DNA from: Candidatus Saccharimonadota bacterium
Lineage (GTDB): Bacteria > Patescibacteriota > Saccharimonadia > Saccharimonadales > SLHW01
Length of the DNA stretch: 64,000 nucleotides
Assembly (NCBI GenBank): GCA_024635455.1
Contig: JAGXIU010000003.1
Coordinates: 67,966 to 131,965 of the forward strand
Reading direction: 5' to 3'
Numbering within the stretch: the first letter of the stretch is position 1; each line of letters begins with the position of its first letter. Below the pieces are notes generated by a model. It did no database searches and was not told the DNA's origin. It saw nothing but the letters and a program-made list of their open reading frames with translations. The position numbers and the translations under genes were made by a program. Positions 44,685 through 53,283 of this stretch are shown here, piece by piece.

Positions 44685-45632
44685 GTGTTGCGGTTATTTT
44701 CTGCGAGTGAAGGAATCCACATCAGCCTCAGTCCCGAGGGTCTGTTTGAGTTCGGTTCATTCGTGTTCACCAATGCCATGCTATATGGTGTAATTTCCGC
44801 TGTTTTTATCTTTGTTTTTATGCGCTGGGCCGCCAAGCATGTATCAATTAAGCCAACCAAAAAAGCTGCCGTAGCAGTTATAGAGATGATGGTCGAATAT
44901 GTAATCGGCGTACTGAGCGGTGCATTCGGTTCACGAGAAAAAGGTGTGAAGTTTGCCCCAGTCTTTGCATTTTTCTTTATTTTTATTATCTTTAGTAACT
45001 TACTCGGCATCACTCCCTTTGTTAGTCCAGGTTTTACGCTTGGCGAGGCTCACCTCTTCCGGCCACTAACTGCAGATTTGAATGGTACGATCGCACTGAG
45101 TGTTATTGCTATTATTGTTGTCCAAGTACTTAGTATAAAAGAGCAAGGTGTTAAGAAACACGCCCAACATTACTTTAGTGACAAGCCCCTCAACCCGATC
45201 AACTTCTTTATAGGTGTGCTTGAGGTATTTAGCGAGTTCACACGTATCGTTAGCCTTAGCTTGCGTCTCTTCCTGAATACTGCCGTAGGTGAGATTCTTA
45301 TCGCAGTGTTTACCAGCATGATACTCGTAAATGGGCGTACGCCAATTGCCGTCATACCAATTCTTTTATTTGAGGTTCTGGTTGCCTACATTCAGGCGTA
45401 CGTATTCACCGTACTGACGGCGAACTATTTGGGCATTGCCATAGCACACGCTGATGATCACCATGACGATGAGCAAACAGAAGCTGATCAGCCAAACGAG
45501 CAAACCGCTAGCACAATTCCGGACTCCTCAATGTCTTCCGCCTCCAGCGTGAGTTCTGCCAGTACGAACAATTTCCATGACCATCTCTCCCCTGCTACAC
45601 TAAATAACCGGTTGGTAGGCTCGGATGGCTAA
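44685..45632 (+). CDS. atpB: F0F1 ATP synthase subunit a, with a ~60-aa His/Asp/Ser-rich C-terminal extension
   Basis: Conserved Arg context LSLRLFLN and ...YIQAYVFTVLTANYLG. GTG start is uncertain because the AAGGAG SD lies 13 nt upstream. Confidence 0.85.
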   Translation: MLRLFSASEGIHISLSPEGLFEFGSFVFTNAMLYGVISAVFIFVFMRWAAKHVSIKPTKKAAVAVIEMMVEYVIGVLSGAFGSREKGVKFAPVFAFFFIFIIFSNLLGITPFVSPGFTLGEAHLFRPLTADLNGTIALSVIAIIVVQVLSIKEQGVKKHAQHYFSDKPLNPINFFIGVLEVFSEFTRIVSLSLRLFLNTAVGEILIAVFTSMILVNGRTPIAVIPILLFEVLVAYIQAYVFTVLTANYLGIAIAHADDHHDDEQTEADQPNEQTASTIPDSSMSSASSVSSASTNNFHDHLSPATLNNRLVGSDG

Positions 45633-45668: not shown

Positions 45669-45902
45669 ATGGTTGATTTATTGGCGCAAGCAGAATCCAG
45701 CATTGCAATCTCGAAGGGGATTATGCTTGGTATATCACTCGGTGCAGCTGCACTTGGACTTGCACTGCTCGGCGCAAACTACATGAAGGCTTTGGGTCGT
45801 AACCCAGAAGCTGGCAAGACAGCAAACGCGATTATTATTATCGCTGCTATGATTGAGGTAACTGCCCTTTTGGCATTCCTCCTCGGCGCATTCTTGTTCT
45901 AA
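45669..45902 (+). CDS. atpE: F0F1 ATP synthase subunit c
   Basis: 77-aa helical hairpin. Gly/Ala-rich TM1, loop RNPE, and the carboxylate in MIEVTALLAF. Confidence 0.9.
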   Translation: MVDLLAQAESSIAISKGIMLGISLGAAALGLALLGANYMKALGRNPEAGKTANAIIIIAAMIEVTALLAFLLGAFLF

Positions 45903-45941: not shown

Positions 45942-46469
45942 ATGATTCACATATTTGCAGCGACTGAAGACCTAGAAGGTATTGCAGCGCTTGGTATTGA
46001 TCCCTGGGCCATTTTGGCGCAGACGGTTACCCTTCTGACGTTGTTCTACGTTGTTAAGAGGTTTGCATTAGACAAGATCGTTACTATGCTGCAAGAGCGT
46101 CACAAGAAGATCGATAGTGGCGTGCGACTCGGGTATAAAATGGAGAAAGAATTCTCGAATCTACAGGAAAAAGTAGAAGCAGAGCTGCACAAAGCACGAC
46201 TTGATGCTGACAAGATACTAGATGAAGCTCACCAGGAATCATCTGAAATTGTTAAAGCCGCAGAAGAAAAGGCCAGCCATAAAGTTGAGCAGATGATAAT
46301 TGACGCTGAAGCAAAGATAGGGACAGACATGGAGCGTGCTCGCAAGGAGTTACAGCAAGACGTCGTTAATTTAGTTGCTGACGCGACAGAAGTTGTGCTA
46401 CGCGAAAAGCTCGATCCGGACAAAGACATGAAGCTGATTGAGCGTGCAATATCAGAGGTATCCCAGTGA
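45942..46469 (+). CDS. atpF: F0F1 ATP synthase subunit b
   Basis: 175 aa. One N-terminal TM followed by a long charged helix. Position in the operon supports the call. Confidence 0.85.
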   Translation: MIHIFAATEDLEGIAALGIDPWAILAQTVTLLTLFYVVKRFALDKIVTMLQERHKKIDSGVRLGYKMEKEFSNLQEKVEAELHKARLDADKILDEAHQESSEIVKAAEEKASHKVEQMIIDAEAKIGTDMERARKELQQDVVNLVADATEVVLREKLDPDKDMKLIERAISEVSQ

Positions 46470-46855
46470 GCACTTCTCTACCACGTAAAGAGCTCGCCCA
46501 GGCTTTGCTTGATATCGTAGCTTCGTCTAGTGACGCACCTAAAGTTATTGATCAGATTGCCGCCTATCTCGTTACCGAAGGACGCGCAGCAGAACTTGAT
46601 GCACTACTTAGGGACATGGAGGATATCCAGCTTGCGAAGAACGGCCTACAAGAAGTACAAACCACCAGTGCTCAAACATTATCCGCAGACGTAAAGCGCG
46701 CCATCGAATCCTTATTCGATGCCGAGCATGTACGTCTACATGAATCCATAGACGATCAGTTAGTTGGTGGCGTCCGTGTCCGCTCAAAAGATACGGTTAT
46801 GGATCTGAGCATACGAACACAGTTAAACCGATTAAAGCACAGCGTTAAGGTATAG
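46466..46855 (+). CDS. atpH: F0F1 ATP synthase subunit delta (short, 129 aa)
   Basis: OSCP-type C-terminus [30 protein letters not shown] overlap with atpF. Confidence 0.8.
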
Positions 46856-46877: not shown

Positions 46878-48455
46878 ATGGCAACAACATCGAACACAGT
46901 ATCAATCAAAGAACTCAGTCAGGACATCCGGGCTGCAATTGAAGAGCTCAAAACTAAACCTGAGATAGAAGAAGTTGGTATTGTCACACGTATTGGTGAC
47001 GGCATTGCCTGGATTTATGGGCTACGATCATGTGGCTATAACGAAATGATAGAAATCGAGACCAATGACGGTGGTACACTGACAGCGTTTGCGCTGAACT
47101 TAGGTACTGATGAAATCGGTGCAGTGCTCCTCGGAGATGAGACAGGTGTTGGCGCAGGAGCAACTGCTCGCCTAACCGGCTCTATACTGCAAGTACCAAC
47201 TGGCCCAGAACTAGTTGGTCGTGTGGTTAATCCACTCGGTCAACCACTTGATGATAAGGGTCCTATTAAGACCAAACAATTTAGCCCAGTTGAGCAACCA
47301 GCCCCAAGCGTGCTTGATAGAAAAAGTGTCGACGAGCCAATGATGACTGGCCTGCTTTCTATCGATGCCATGGTGCCAATTGGCCGGGGCCAGCGAGAGC
47401 TAATTATTGGTGACCGTCAAACTGGTAAAACTGCTATCGCGGTTGATACTATGATTAATCAACACAAGCAAGAGACTGGTGTTATAAATATCTACGTTGC
47501 GATTGGGCAAAAACTTAGTAAGGTTGCTGCTCTCGTGGAGCGCCTTAAGCGAGAAGGTGTTATGGAGCAGTCCATTATCGTGGCAACCTCAGCGGCCGAT
47601 CCAGCTAGCTTACAGTACCTAGCGCCATATGCAGGTTGTAGTATGGGTGAATATTTCCGTGATAATGCTCAGCACGCACTCATCATCTATGATGATTTAA
47701 CCAAACACGCTGCAGCCTACCGGCAAATGTCTCTACTCTTACGCCGCCCTCCTGGCCGTGAAGCCTACCCGGGCGATGTATTCTATCTACACTCTCGCCT
47801 CCTGGAGCGAGCTGCCAAGCTTAACGATGAGCTCGGCGCAGGTAGCTTAACTGCTCTGCCAATTATTGAGACACAAGCTGGCGATATTAGCGCCTATATA
47901 CCGACCAACGTTATATCTATCACTGATGGACAAATATTCATGGAGACGAATCTGTTCTACCAGGGCGTTCGGCCGGCTATATCAGTCGGTTTGTCGGTAT
48001 CTCGTGTTGGTGGTGCTGCACAGACCAAAGCCGTTAAGAGTGTGGCTGGCAACTTACGTCTAGGCCTTGCACAGTTCCGTGAATTAGCAGCCTTCGCTCA
48101 GTTTTCAACCGATCTAGACGCAGAGACCAAGCAGCGTATTGAGCGCGGTCAAAGGTTGACCGAACTTCTCAAACAGCCACAGTACAGCCCATTGAGTGTC
48201 TGGGAACAAACTGCTCTTCTATTGGCTGCCAATGAAGGTTGCTTTGATAGTGTTGGGCTAGCTGATGTAAAACACGCCAAAGATGCGCTTTTGAGTGATC
48301 TGCAAAAGCATCACAAGAGTATGATGAACACACTGAATGAGGGTGATAAGCCAACGGATAAGATGAAGTCAACTATCATTAAGACTGCAAATGATGTCAT
48401 GAAGAGTTATCATTCAGAAGAACAAGCTGAGGAGAAGACCACTACAACTTCTTAA
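46878..48455 (+). CDS. atpA: F0F1 ATP synthase subunit alpha
   Basis: Walker A GDRQTGKT, plus ...IYDDLTKHA...[26 protein letters not shown]. Confidence 0.95.
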
Positions 48456-48473: not shown

Positions 48474-49340
48474 ATGGCAAGTACACAACAGCTAAAACGA
48501 CGAATCGGAAGCGTGAAGAACACGAAGCAGATTACTAAGGCTATGGAAATGGTAGCCGCCAGTAAGATGCGTCGGGCGCAGGATCATGCCCTGCAGTCAC
48601 GAGAGTTTCGTCGATTAGCTCGTCGGATTTTAGCTCGGCTGAGCGAGGTTACTGATGTAAGCAAGCACCCACTCTACGTTCAGCGATCAGTCAAAACGCG
48701 GTGGCACGTTTTTATCACGAGTGATCGCGGTTTAGCAGGTGCGTTTTATAGTAATTTGTTCCGTTCGTTTATGCGTGAACTTCAAGATGACAGTGAGCAT
48801 AGTGTAAGTAGTAAGGTTATCGTGATTGGCCGAAAAGGCGCTCACTTTATGAGCAAACTCGATGGTGTTGAGACGGTCGCAGTCTATGACGGCTTCCCTG
48901 AGCACCCAACTGCCGCCGATATACAACCGATACTGCGCAGTATTATTGATTCGTTCAAGCTAGAAAAAGCCGATAGGGTTGACGTGACGTATACAGACTT
49001 TCGCTCAAGCATATCTCAGGTAGTTGTAACCGAGCAGTTATTACCAGCGGTCTTTAAAGATTCAGAACCAGCTGAGGAGTTTGACCGCGCTATGGTAGAG
49101 CCAAGTCCAGAAGAAGTACTAGAGCAAATAAGTGAGCGCTTAGTAGAAGTTCAACTGTCTCAGGCTTTTCGCGAGTCACAAGCTAGTGAGCACTCAGCTC
49201 GTATGATGGCTATGAAAAGTGCGACTGATAATGCCGGGGATTTGATTGATGATTTGACGCTTGAGTTTAACACCGCCCGCCAAGCATCTATTACACAAGA
49301 ATTAGCTGAAATAACCGGCGGCGCAGAAGCAATAAATTAA
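48474..49340 (+). CDS. atpG: F0F1 ATP synthase subunit gamma
   Basis: N-terminus LKRRIGSVKNTKQITKAMEMVAASKMRRAQ. C-terminus ARQASITQELAEITGGAEA. Confidence 0.95.
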   Translation: MASTQQLKRRIGSVKNTKQITKAMEMVAASKMRRAQDHALQSREFRRLARRILARLSEVTDVSKHPLYVQRSVKTRWHVFITSDRGLAGAFYSNLFRSFMRELQDDSEHSVSSKVIVIGRKGAHFMSKLDGVETVAVYDGFPEHPTAADIQPILRSIIDSFKLEKADRVDVTYTDFRSSISQVVVTEQLLPAVFKDSEPAEEFDRAMVEPSPEEVLEQISERLVEVQLSQAFRESQASEHSARMMAMKSATDNAGDLIDDLTLEFNTARQASITQELAEITGGAEAIN

Positions 49341-49350
49341 GGGAGTCAGC

Positions 49351-51266
<1,916 letters not shown>

Positions 51267-51269
51267 TCC

Positions 51270-51500
51270 ATGCACAGCCAACCAATGTCACACGAAGAGT
51301 TTGAGCTTGCTGCTCGCGAATTGCCTCTTGAAACTACAGGAGATATGAGTTCTTCGCATCAAGTTGGGAGCGTGATATTTACGACGTCTTTTGAGAAGTC
51401 GCATCACGAGAGCATCCCAAAAGTACCAACGACATATTTAGTACAGGTTGCAGAAGTACTTGAGGAAGTAGCTCAGGCTACCCAGGAGAGTGATGCGTAA
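51270..51500 (+). CDS. Orphan 76-aa protein embedded between atpD and atpC
   Basis: Starts 3 nt after the atpD stop, with an AGAGG SD. No motif recognised. Confidence 0.6.
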   Translation: MHSQPMSHEEFELAARELPLETTGDMSSSHQVGSVIFTTSFEKSHHESIPKVPTTYLVQVAEVLEEVAQATQESDA

Positions 51501-51721
51501 TGAAAGAAATCAACACGTTTGACCAGCTTATGGAACAGATTACATGCGGCAATGTGGAGCTGGTCGGATACCAGAATGTCTGCTCTGATAGGCTAGTCCG
51601 TGTACACGACCACGGGACACCTCAACAGCTTATGGAAACACTTGAGCGTTCAGAGTATCAGGTAGCTGTGCCGCTCGCTGATGAAGTAATACGTATACCT
51701 CTGGAGGGTTCTGCTGCATGA
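51500..51721 (+). CDS. Orphan 73-aa protein embedded between atpD and atpC
   Basis: TAATG overlap with the previous ORF and ATGA overlap with atpC. AGGAG SD upstream. Confidence 0.6.
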   Translation: MKEINTFDQLMEQITCGNVELVGYQNVCSDRLVRVHDHGTPQQLMETLERSEYQVAVPLADEVIRIPLEGSAA

Positions 51722-52149
51722 TACATCTAGAGCTCGTTAGCCTTGAGGGTAAAAAGTACGATGCGGAAGTACATGAGGTACTCTTGCCTACTCCTGATGG
51801 ACAAATTGCAATATTCAAAAACCATGCACCACTGGTGAGTCTCGTAGCAGAAGGCATGATAGGTGTTCGACAAAGAGAAAATCACCCAGATGATATGGTT
51901 GAGTACTTCGCTACGACCGGAGGCGTCGTTGAGATTACTGATTCAGCTGTACGCATGTTAGTAGACGAGGCTGCTGGTAGCGACGAACTTGATGAAGCTG
52001 AGGCACACAAAGCACTTGAGCGCGCTAAGCAACTACGGAATGAAGCCAAGGATCAGGTTTCCCTGGAGCACGCTCAGCAAATGGTCAACCGGAGCGCTAC
52101 ACAACTCAAGGTAGCAGGCCTTAAGCGCCGACGCCGGCAATCTAAGTAA
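51718..52149 (+). CDS. atpC: F0F1 ATP synthase subunit epsilon
   Basis: LELVSLEGKKYDAEVHEVLLPTPDGQIAIFKNHAPLVSLV plus a C-terminal helical hairpin. GGAGG SD. Confidence 0.9.
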   Translation: MIHLELVSLEGKKYDAEVHEVLLPTPDGQIAIFKNHAPLVSLVAEGMIGVRQRENHPDDMVEYFATTGGVVEITDSAVRMLVDEAAGSDELDEAEAHKALERAKQLRNEAKDQVSLEHAQQMVNRSATQLKVAGLKRRRRQSK

Positions 52150-52260
52150 CATAACGTCATTTTCTCTGGTCAATAAACAGCACAATTGTACTTGCATTTC
52201 AGTATTTATCAGCGTAAGATTTGAACTTGTGTGAACTAATACAAATAGGAACCAGGACGT

Positions 52261-53283
52261 ATGACATACGAGAATCAATTTGAAGGAAACAACCCTACAG
52301 AGTTAAAGGCCAAGCCAACAACAGAAGCGTTATTAGTAGCCCCACATGGACTGGGCTATGGTGAGGGCGCAATATCTTATGAAAATCGGGCAAAGACCGA
52401 TGTGCCAGAGCAGGAGTTAGAAAAAGTCGCTTCATTATTGTTGAGCGGTGATGTCCTTGTCTCTATAGATACTGATAAGCTCACTGGTGAAGCACTTGAT
52501 GATGATGGTTGTGGCGATGGTCGCGGTATCACGAACGAACAAGGAGAAATCGTTGAGGTCATGCAAGGTGACAAAATCCTAAAAAAGTCATTAAACCGTG
52601 CAAAGGTTTTTGGTGGTGGTGCAACGATGGCGCTTTCAACGTTAATAGCAACTAATCAAGCAGAAAAACCACTACAAGATATGTTTAGCCAAGCCATGAA
52701 AGTAATGGATGATGCTGAGATAGATTATGGTGCACACAGTGACGAGCACGCAGGCGGTGATAAATCCGGTTGTGGTGCAATCGATAATGCGCCAAAGATT
52801 CTTCAAAATGCAGTCAAATACCGCGATAGCATCTATTCAACTATACTGAGTCTAGATGATGAAATCGATGCACAGATGTTAGACGAAGTACTGGATAGCT
52901 TTGCAAGCTATGCTGATACGCACCTAGGGGCTGAATATAGCGGCAAAGAAGTCCTTGATGGCATCAAAAAAGAAGAAAAGGTGGTGAAGAAACTAACATC
53001 TAATCATCATGAGATGTATATTGCACTTAATGACGTAGCGGGCTATACAGTTAACCAGCATGCCATACGTGATGCAACAGAAGAAAAAGTCCAAGTATTT
53101 GCTGTTGATACGTGGCGTATAAAAGAAATTGCCAATCGATTATATGAAAGTGAAGATAAAGAGCTCGGTCAAAAAGCAGTACTTGGTGAGATGATATATA
53201 CATTAGCCACAGCAGCAACCTTAACTGCTGGCGATTTACCCGTCTATCGTATGCAGGAGTCGCGAGAAGCAGTATATGCCTAG
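52261..53283 (+). CDS. Soluble protein of unknown function with CxDxR and H...CG motifs
   Basis: 340 aa. Contains DDDGCGDGRG and HSDEHAGGDKSGCGAIDN. No family recognised. Confidence 0.65.
   Translation: MTYENQFEGNNPTELKAKPTTEALLVAPHGLGYGEGAISYENRAKTDVPEQELEKVASLLLSGDVLVSIDTDKLTGEALDDDGCGDGRGITNEQGEIVEVMQGDKILKKSLNRAKVFGGGATMALSTLIATNQAEKPLQDMFSQAMKVMDDAEIDYGAHSDEHAGGDKSGCGAIDNAPKILQNAVKYRDSIYSTILSLDDEIDAQMLDEVLDSFASYADTHLGAEYSGKEVLDGIKKEEKVVKKLTSNHHEMYIALNDVAGYTVNQHAIRDATEEKVQVFAVDTWRIKEIANRLYESEDKELGQKAVLGEMIYTLATAATLTAGDLPVYRMQESREAVYA

Follow-up and report, generated by a model that had tools for sequence, protein, structure and literature searches.

Two small genes in the gap between atpD and atpC

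The 64,000-nucleotide (nt) stretch of a Candidatus Saccharimonadota contig analysed here (JAGXIU010000003.1, positions 67,966 to 131,965; hereafter the window, in whose numbering coordinates are given) carries a complete F-type ATP synthase (atp) operon on its forward (+) strand, as established from its list of open reading frames (ORFs), Pfam and NCBIfam. The atpD gene (F1 beta; 49884-51266; Pfam ATP-synt_ab, 1e-73) and the atpC gene (F1 epsilon; 51718-52149) of this operon are separated by a gap that is wholly taken up by two small ORFs on the same strand, ORF76 (76 amino acids (aa); 51270-51500, from an ATG at 51270 to a TAA at 51498-51500) and ORF73 (73 aa; 51500-51721, from an ATG at 51500 to a TGA at 51719-51721). 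The epsilon subunit encoded by atpC has both of its domains complete (Pfam ATP-synt_DE_N, 1e-16, and ATP-synt_DE, 4e-6; TIGR01216, 93.9 bits).

A preliminary description of this DNA had reported the two micro-genes as chained between atpD and atpC, and their coordinates, overlaps and Shine-Dalgarno-like motifs were all confirmed. The atpD stop codon TAA (51264-51266) is followed by 3 nt and then by the ATG of ORF76, ORF76 overlaps ORF73 by TAATG, and ORF73 overlaps atpC by ATGA, with the atpC ATG at 51718. Each of the three starts is preceded, 10-11 nt further 5′, by a Shine-Dalgarno-like motif on the same strand that lies within the last codons of the preceding gene: AAGAGG (51253-51258) within the terminal atpD codons AAA GAG GTC AAG TAA, AGGAG (51484-51488) within those of ORF76, and GGAGG (51703-51707) within those of ORF73, where it forms part of the codons for L-E-G.

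The claim that every junction has a translational-coupling architecture was likewise borne out, the same coupled layout being present in at least six related contigs. Across about a dozen related contigs, all junctions are either gaps of 1-5 nt or overlaps, which measure 1, 4 or 8 nt and usually read ATGA or TAATG. A purine-rich motif equivalent to AGGAG is found at the ORF76/ORF73 junction of most relatives, and GGAGG or GAGGA at the ORF73/atpC junction of four of them (L084, L087, L089 and L090; comparison contigs and loci are given by L numbers). In relatives without an insert, atpC starts 0-8 nt 3′ of atpD, behind the purine-rich last codons of that gene, and in the window's clade ORF76 takes the position that atpC holds in these insert-free relatives. 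No internal promoter or terminator signal above shuffled expectation was found inside the region, and cmscan of 49000-52500 (E <= 1) returned no Rfam match.

This layout suggests that ORF76 and ORF73 would lie inside the atp transcription unit and be translated by serial coupling. A ribosome ending atpD could restart at ORF76 by means of the Shine-Dalgarno-like motif in the last atpD codons, and would be handed over from ORF76 to ORF73 at TAATG and from ORF73 to atpC at ATGA. Because the last codons of each micro-gene carry the Shine-Dalgarno-like motif of the next gene, synthesis of epsilon would be threaded through both, and we infer a termination-reinitiation chain running from beta through ORF76 and ORF73 to epsilon. 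The embedding of these motifs would also account, in part, for the conserved C-terminal residues of ORF76 and ORF73.

Public gene calls (NCBI and Logan; P0002) put the start of ORF76 at Met6 (51285), yielding a product of 71 aa. These calls are probably too short, and the 76 aa given in the preliminary description is the better call, because the ATG at 51270 is conserved in relatives and because L083 has a Leu at position 6.

Coding status, evolutionary rate and distribution

Coding potential was scored with a frame-specific codon model trained on the long genes of the window. The resulting codon-usage log-odds were 0.30 for ORF76 and 0.27 for ORF73, where held-out pieces of real genes averaged 0.26, and both ORFs exceeded all 77 spurious ORFs of 55-100 aa that overlap real genes (mean -0.05, maximum 0.267). 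Relatives were recovered by a metagenome scan with epsilon, which gave L083 (epsilon 94% and beta 98% identical to those of the window), and by a protein search with epsilon, which gave the contigs of further relatives. Six contigs (L083, L084, L087, L088, L089 and L090; epsilon 94-82% identical) fill the atpD-atpC gap with two ORFs, one of 72-93 aa and one of 73-77 aa, joined across gaps of 1-5 nt or by overlapping 4 or 8 nt, and these frames are open and of similar lengths.

Between the window and L083, dS (the synonymous substitution rate) of atp genes is 1.1-1.6, meaning that synonymous sites are saturated, and amino-acid identity is 42% for ORF73 and 33-36% for ORF76. Identity by codon position follows the order second > first > third. 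The conserved blocks change mostly at synonymous sites: 9/10 nucleotide differences from L083 are synonymous in the ORF73 block YQNVCSDRLVRV, as are 3/4 in the ORF76 block SHEEFELAARE. Ratios of nonsynonymous (dN) to synonymous substitution, calculated across pairs by the Nei-Gojobori method (NG86) and only approximate because many dS values are saturated, were 0.12-0.19 for ORF73, 0.14-0.5 for ORF76, 0.016-0.056 for atpC and ~0.005 for atpD. The dN values themselves were 0.18-0.69 for the micro-genes, 0.02-0.14 for epsilon and ~0.015 for beta, i.e. 5-45x higher in ORF76 and ORF73 than in the two flanking subunits, and in the five closest relatives the final 200 residues of beta match at 97-100% identity. 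ORF76 and ORF73 are therefore under purifying selection, yet evolve 5-45x faster than their neighbours. Judged from codon usage, conservation and mode of substitution, they are genuine protein-coding genes.

The near-identical contigs L087 (927-1378) and L089 (748-1199), for which dS is 0.02-0.11 in atpD and atpC, differ at five sites in the two micro-genes, and all five differences are nonsynonymous (5/5, with 0 synonymous). This pattern could reflect short-term relaxed or diversifying selection, or assembly noise.

Pairwise and profile comparison of all slot ORFs defined the families: A (ORF76), B (ORF73), X and Xp. Family X is that of ORF176, an acidic 176-aa ORF located between atpG and atpD on the + strand (49351-49881), and Xp is a family of the same atpG-atpD slot that is unrelated to X. 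Family A comprises six close members, with orthologues of ORF76 in L083, L084, L087, L089 and L090, and distant members in L098 (99 aa), L092 (112 aa), L091 (89 aa) and L097 (64 aa). The 99-aa ORF of L098 bridges the family (E = 0.003 to the window's ORF76 and 8e-10 to the ORF of L092), and its two subgroups align with hhalign P = 0.0035. Family B likewise has six close members, the orthologues of ORF73 being 42-71% identical, and includes a homologous 70-aa ORF of L096 (E ~1e-11 in a database of ~30 sequences). The ORFs of L095 (46 aa), L097 (65 aa) and L098 (61 aa), which are reciprocal best weak hits (hhalign P = 0.0013), form a probable diverged subgroup of family B.

With respect to the atpD-atpC slot, both A and B are present in the window and in L083, L084, L087, L089, L090, L097 and L098, A is present as a single ORF in L091 and L092, B is present without A in L095 and L096, and L094 has neither, its slot being occupied by an unrelated 128-aa ORF. 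Family X was confined to the window and L083, apart from a C-terminal stub with which L084 begins, whereas Xp occurs in L084 (46-330), L092 (3811-4272), L096 (802-1191), L097 (1755-2246; split into 67 + 95 aa) and L098 (1927-2130), so that L084 carries both X and Xp. All contigs with family members have an epsilon at least 65% identical to the window's, and 80 GTDB Patescibacteria loci (epsilon up to ~54% identical) held no homologue of ORF76, ORF73 or ORF176. The closest matches of the window's beta are Saccharibacteria metagenome-assembled genomes, at up to 82% identity. The pattern of presence and absence indicates that the micro-genes are of long standing in a single subclade, are passed down vertically, can each be dispensed with, and are inherited together neither with one another nor with ORF176. 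The suggestion in the preliminary description that ORF176, ORF76 and ORF73 might be present or absent together did not hold up, X being confined to the closest relatives and A and B being older and lost independently. Co-occurrence also speaks against an F1 subunit or factor, with A alone, B alone or neither in members of the clade and both absent from the 80 distant loci.

Those 80 Patescibacteria atp loci (L003-L082) served to examine the same junctions more widely, an insert being defined as 150 nt or more. The gap between atpD and atpC has a median of 20 nt in these loci and reaches at least 150 nt in 17/71, and gaps of at least 150 nt were also seen between atpA and atpG (14/73) and between atpG and atpD (13/69). 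Where loci could be measured in both halves of the operon, inserts occupied 24/110 F1-half junctions versus 4/94 Fo-half junctions (Fisher p = 2e-4). The inserts comprise genes of mutually unrelated families with no connection to energy metabolism: 23S_rRNA_IVP, a four-helix bundle, lies at F1-half junctions in L017, L034, L051 and L080 (and, by BLAST, in L045), and other loci have an insert encoding a SET-domain protein (L052), a cytidine deaminase (L057), DUF218 (L025), ORF6N (L055) or the AdoMet decarboxylase AdoMet_dc (L050). Because unrelated genes are found at the same F1-half junctions, the place of a gene in an operon says little about its function in this phylum.

The remaining genes of the window's operon are, all on the + strand, atpB (44685-45632), atpE (45669-45902), atpF (45942-46469), atpH (46466-46855), atpA (46878-48455) and the Pfam-confirmed atpG (48474-49340). 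The a subunit encoded by atpB measures 315 aa, of which the last ~70 form a C-terminal tail with many Asp, Glu, His and Ser residues (…HADDHHDDEQTEADQ…SSASSVSSAS…); atpB is similarly long in L092 and L095 (310-312 aa). Directly 3′ of atpC lies ORF340 (340 aa; 52261-53283), which is found clade-wide and is 77% identical to its counterpart in L083. Its product contains the Cys/His-rich motifs GCGDGRG, HSDEH and SGCGA, and matches no Pfam family except for a faint CDCA hint on homologues. As for ORF176, it is 43% identical to its L083 orthologue, with a dN/dS of 0.15-0.19.

Homology searches, composition and predicted structure

The preliminary description had judged by eye that neither protein resembles a known F-type subunit, and the searches agree: no match was obtained in Pfam or NCBIfam, and no credible one in profile searches of PDB sequences. 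Specifically, Pfam-A and NCBIfam (E <= 1) returned no family for ORF76 or ORF73, and Pfam none for ORF176. When nine members each of families A and B were scanned singly against Pfam and NCBIfam, only isolated single-member matches to unrelated families appeared (E 0.03-0.1). Searches of PHROGs and PADLOC gave no match for ORF76, ORF73 or four diverged relatives from families A, B and Xp, apart from one unrelated weak match of L092 (E = 0.058). No known family unrelated to energy metabolism thus emerged for ORF76 or ORF73 from Pfam, NCBIfam, PHROGs or PADLOC; a match to such a family is what the preliminary description had named as counting against its proposal. ORF73 had no relative among IMG/VR viral contigs, profile searches of PDB sequences with both families gave no credible homologue, and a word-index search of 5.8 billion proteins returned only self matches for ORF76 and ORF73. 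When 1.84 billion representatives were scanned exhaustively by HMMER with ORF73 as the query, two 73-aa orthologue representatives (66% and 43% identity) emerged, together with ~40 long repeat proteins, which are discussed below. At the level of sequence, families A and B are new.

Several possible origins were rejected. ORF76 and ORF73 are not members of the epsilon family, having no match to ATP-synt_DE_N or ATP-synt_DE (Pfam, E <= 1), and blastn and tblastx of the region against the window came back empty, which speaks against duplication of atpC, atpD or other sequence in the window. An internal duplication of ORF73 was likewise dismissed, hhalign of its halves scoring 7.1 versus a mean of 7.8 for shuffled columns. 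Homology among the families was non-significant in all comparisons (A versus B, X versus Xp), as was that of A or B with the orphan ORFs that occupy the same slot in distant Saccharibacteria (L003, L006, L007, L009 and L032). Two short repeats were seen at chance level: a 12-nt direct repeat within ORF73, CAGCTTATGGAA, at 51524-51535 and 51626-51637 (102 nt apart), and a 13-nt string, ATGGAACAGATTA, common to the start of ORF176 (49351-49363) and to ORF73 (51530-51542).

Both products are predicted to be small, cytoplasmic and strongly acidic. ORF76 has an isoelectric point (pI) of 4.6, a grand average of hydropathy (GRAVY) of -0.40 and 13 acidic versus 3 basic residues, and the corresponding values for ORF73 are 4.5, -0.23 and 12 versus 5; across families A and B, pI is 4.0-4.8 and GRAVY negative. 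No hydrophobic or membrane segment is visible in either sequence. The window's own proteins also tend to be acidic (median pI of 5.3 among its 53 ORFs of at least 120 aa, with 57% of proteins below pI 5.5), so that a genome-wide trend accounts for part of the acidity of the micro-proteins.

Conservation is concentrated in a few blocks, all encoded on the + strand. ORF76 has an N-terminal motif S-H-E-E-F-E-L-A-A-R-E (residues 7-17; 51288-51320) that is near-invariant in six orthologues, and a C-terminal helix Y-L-V-Q-V-A-E-V-L-E-E-V-A (residues 56-68; 51435-51473) that is apparent from the alignments and falls within helix 54-74 of an AlphaFold2 (AF2) model. In ORF73, the alignments delineate a core Y-Q-N-V-C-S-D-R-L-V-R-V (residues 24-35; 51569-51604), of which S-D-R-L-V is invariant in six close orthologues and D-R-x-V is kept in nine family members, and a second block T-P-Q-Q-L-M-E-T-L-E-R-S-E-Y (residues 40-53; 51617-51658). 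AF2 prediction of ORF76 from its single sequence was of low confidence (predicted local distance difference test (pLDDT) 66.1; predicted template modelling score (pTM) 0.24) and proposed a helix at 8-17, a beta-hairpin at 26-41 and a helix at 54-74, which coincide with the conserved blocks, as well as a variable linker. That of ORF73 from a 3-sequence alignment was also of low confidence (pLDDT 48.9). Foldseek against the PDB gave no match below E = 2.9, and no fold is inferred because of this. As modelled, each product probably consists of a few short conserved motifs amid variable, flexible segments.

Explanations and known systems

By analogy with other lineages of the phylum, we favour, at a probability of about 0.5, the explanation that ORF76 and ORF73 are dispensable, clade-specific passengers that would rely for their expression on the permissive F1 half of the operon, which is highly expressed, rather than being core parts of the enzyme. 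This reading is favoured because unrelated genes sit in these slots in other members of the phylum, because A, B and X have been lost or replaced independently while the enzyme remained almost unchanged, and because the ORFs evolve far faster than any plausible partner surface. Their evolutionary rate and dispensability, as seen in the sequence comparisons, argue against core subunits. The 'undescribed functional module' proposed in the preliminary description can accordingly be kept only in part: the genes are real, their coupling junctions are conserved and they belong to no known family, but they are not co-inherited, evolve fast and are dispensable, and their position is weak evidence of function.

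Several points weigh against the passenger explanation. Families A and B have been kept in the atpD-atpC slot under purifying selection across a clade with saturated dS, as a real F1 factor would be, and the orphan families A, B, X and Xp all lie in the F1 half and are all acidic, which a shared target could explain. No family member was seen outside an atp operon in the roughly dozen metagenomic contigs by which the clade is sampled, and sensitivity for detecting homologues of such short, fast-evolving proteins elsewhere in genomes is low. The explanation itself also rests on its analogy with other lineages.

The atp operon is among the most conserved gene arrays in bacteria. One Saccharibacteria clade nevertheless keeps up to four extra small protein genes in the coupled-translation chain of its F1 half, and across Patescibacteria foreign genes are found at about one fifth of F1-half versus about one twentieth of Fo-half junctions. 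If the products do not bind F1, the locus would clearly exemplify how young, fast-evolving genes in reduced genomes use a core operon for their expression, and it would caution against inferring gene function in this phylum from position in an operon.

The strongest rival to the passenger explanation, which we regard as a tentative possibility, is that ORF76 and ORF73, and perhaps ORF176 and Xp as well, are factors specific to the clade and associated with F1, such as a beta/epsilon assembly chaperone or a modulator of ATP hydrolysis or synthesis, whose proportion to beta and epsilon would be fixed by translational coupling. The conserved coupled junctions inside the operon in every genome that has the ORFs are consistent with this proposal, as are the retention of the same slot under purifying selection in a clade with saturated dS and the confinement of four orphan families to F1-half junctions. 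Moreover, small protein regulators of F-ATPase exist elsewhere, the cyanobacterial AtpTheta being one example (10.1101/2021.07.30.454416). However, A and B have been lost independently while beta and epsilon are highly conserved, the ORFs evolve 5-45x faster than these supposed partners, unrelated genes occupy the same slots of other Patescibacteria, and in the scans neither ORF resembled epsilon or another family of Pfam or NCBIfam. Known inhibitors make contact with the acidic DELSEED region by helices that are basic or amphipathic, unlike the strongly acidic ORFs, and the monomer models (pLDDT 48.9 and 66.1) have too low a confidence to be of use for docking.

A more specific form of this proposal, which we consider unlikely, would have ORF76, ORF73, ORF176 and Xp act as soluble acidic F1 partners, regulators or assembly factors, docking EEFELAARE and CSDRLVRV onto beta, gamma or epsilon in ratios set by coupling. 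A link of ORF76 and ORF73 to ATPase regulation is possible. Should F1 binding prove true, the ORFs would represent a new class of accessory protein for an enzyme whose bacterial subunit set is regarded as fixed. The organisms concerned have a poorly understood energy metabolism and may run this enzyme in reverse.

Another proposal concerns the fold of ORF73 and is compatible with the other explanations, namely that one helical repeat, in diverged form, makes up its core (residues 23-55), the repeat being related to those of BlaR1/M56-type sensors or of transcription activator-like effectors (TALEs). It arose from the phmmer scan with ORF73, which listed ~40 repeat proteins at E 4e-10 to 1e-3; a hidden Markov model (HMM) of the repeat gave the window's ORF73 17.7 bits over 17 residues, hhalign aligned the ORF73 family with the repeat unit over 33 columns (probability 57%, P = 1e-4), and PDB profile matches to TAL effectors became stronger with a broader ORF73 family profile. 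The resemblance is concentrated in GYQNVCSDRLVRVHDHG. However, the TALE scores are sums over 17 or more near-identical repeats contributing 0-4 bits each, a single 21-residue TALE match being worth ~20 bits by our estimate, which is not significant against the PDB, and the same match list contains unrelated repeat proteins (P0131 and P0150). The repeat HMM fades on ORF73 orthologues (8.3, 5.5, 0 and -1.2 bits), its DHG motif is not conserved in the ORF73 family, hhalign without window-like sequences drops to P = 0.017, and the repeat family was chosen post hoc from 1.8 billion proteins. We thus consider this relationship doubtful, and the similarities to these repeats and to TALEs are, as far as the sequences go, probably due to chance. 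Most of the repeat proteins listed (P0125-P0166) belong to a large family in its own right, with 29-residue tandem repeats of the form 'LxxDxLIRLRDHGV..FI..L...GY' that are often located C-terminal to a BlaR1/M56 peptidase domain, and this repeat family has neither a Pfam or NCBIfam model nor a solved structure.

Two further explanations are very improbable. According to the first, the genes would be mobile cargo, either a toxin-antitoxin pair, an anti-defence protein such as an acidic DNA mimic, or phage-derived genes. Two small overlapping genes do resemble toxin-antitoxin architecture, acidity and fast evolution are also features of anti-restriction DNA mimics, which are strongly acidic and fast-evolving, and phage-type ORF6N and 23S_rRNA_IVP occur in these slots in other lineages. 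Membership of a type II toxin-antitoxin pair was nevertheless rejected, since both proteins are acidic (pI 4.5-4.6) with no basic toxin partner, neither matches Pfam or PADLOC, and A and B each occur without the other in several genomes; a phage or defence family was rejected on the lack of PHROGs or PADLOC matches and, for ORF73, of relatives in viral contigs. In addition, inheritance within the clade looks vertical, position is fixed, and no meaningful flanking repeats are present. According to the second, the ORFs would have a purely cis-acting role: as spacers that are translated, they would set, through successive re-initiation, the ratio at which beta and epsilon are made, and their peptide sequence would be irrelevant. 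Three consecutive coupling junctions between beta, of which a complex has three copies, and epsilon, of which it has one, would suit such a role, as would C-terminal residues that are partly dictated by the embedded Shine-Dalgarno-like motif. Nonetheless, internal amino-acid motifs are kept through many synonymous changes, dN/dS is well below 1, codon usage is gene-like, and the slot of relatives may contain two ORFs, one or none.

That the gap is a non-coding spacer or decaying remnant with accidental frames could be read from the lack of homologues in large databases, the low-confidence structure predictions and the all-nonsynonymous L087/L089 differences (5/5), but is effectively refuted by the comparative data: frames open at similar lengths in at least six diverged genomes, substitution ordered by codon position with conserved blocks changing mostly at synonymous sites, a coding score above all spurious ORFs, no Rfam match, and no paralogous source sequence in the window.

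The library of papers searched contains no description of additional genes lying among atpG, atpD and atpC of Saccharibacteria or Patescibacteria, and several known systems invite comparison. AtpI, AtpZ, AtpQ and AtpR, the closest counterparts by location, are likewise small, non-catalytic, often dispensable, lineage-restricted and co-transcribed with atp genes. Their genes lie beside atpB or at the Fo end of the operon and encode hydrophobic membrane proteins, whereas ORF76 and ORF73 are acidic and hydrophilic, lack a membrane segment, lie between beta and epsilon, and match nothing in Pfam or NCBIfam; their negative GRAVY and lack of a hydrophobic stretch led us to reject a membrane-embedded atp accessory protein. 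The F1 inhibitors (the C-terminal domain of epsilon, zeta, IF1 and AtpTheta), the closest counterparts in possible action, resemble the ORFs in being small soluble proteins or domains that control ATP hydrolysis and that are largely helical, or disordered when free. They differ from ORF76 and ORF73, which are very acidic, fast-evolving and lost independently. In charge, gene location and, as far as the profile scans reach, sequence, nothing ties the inhibitors to the two ORFs. Zeta and IF1 are encoded outside the atp operon. Neither ORF76 nor ORF73 matched an accessory or inhibitor family in Pfam or NCBIfam (E <= 1), where the AtpI, AtpR-type, zeta inhibitor and IF1 families presumably all have models. 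AtpTheta of cyanobacteria, a small F-ATPase regulator that is also encoded outside the atp operon (10.1101/2021.07.30.454416), was compared with ORF76 and ORF73 through the literature.

The 23S rRNA intervening-sequence proteins (PF05635, a four-helix bundle) share with ORF76 and ORF73 the phylum, the atpG-atpD or atpD-atpC slots and the strand of the operon. However, these and other junction inserts belong to recognisable families and measure 128-140 aa, whereas ORF76 and ORF73 match none of them. In their narrow clade, shortness, compositional bias, fast evolution and low-confidence structure predictions, the two micro-genes resemble lineage-specific orphan proteins. Most such orphans are isolated, whereas ORF76 and ORF73 are integrated in the coupled chain of a conserved operon, where they have been kept until synonymous sites became saturated.

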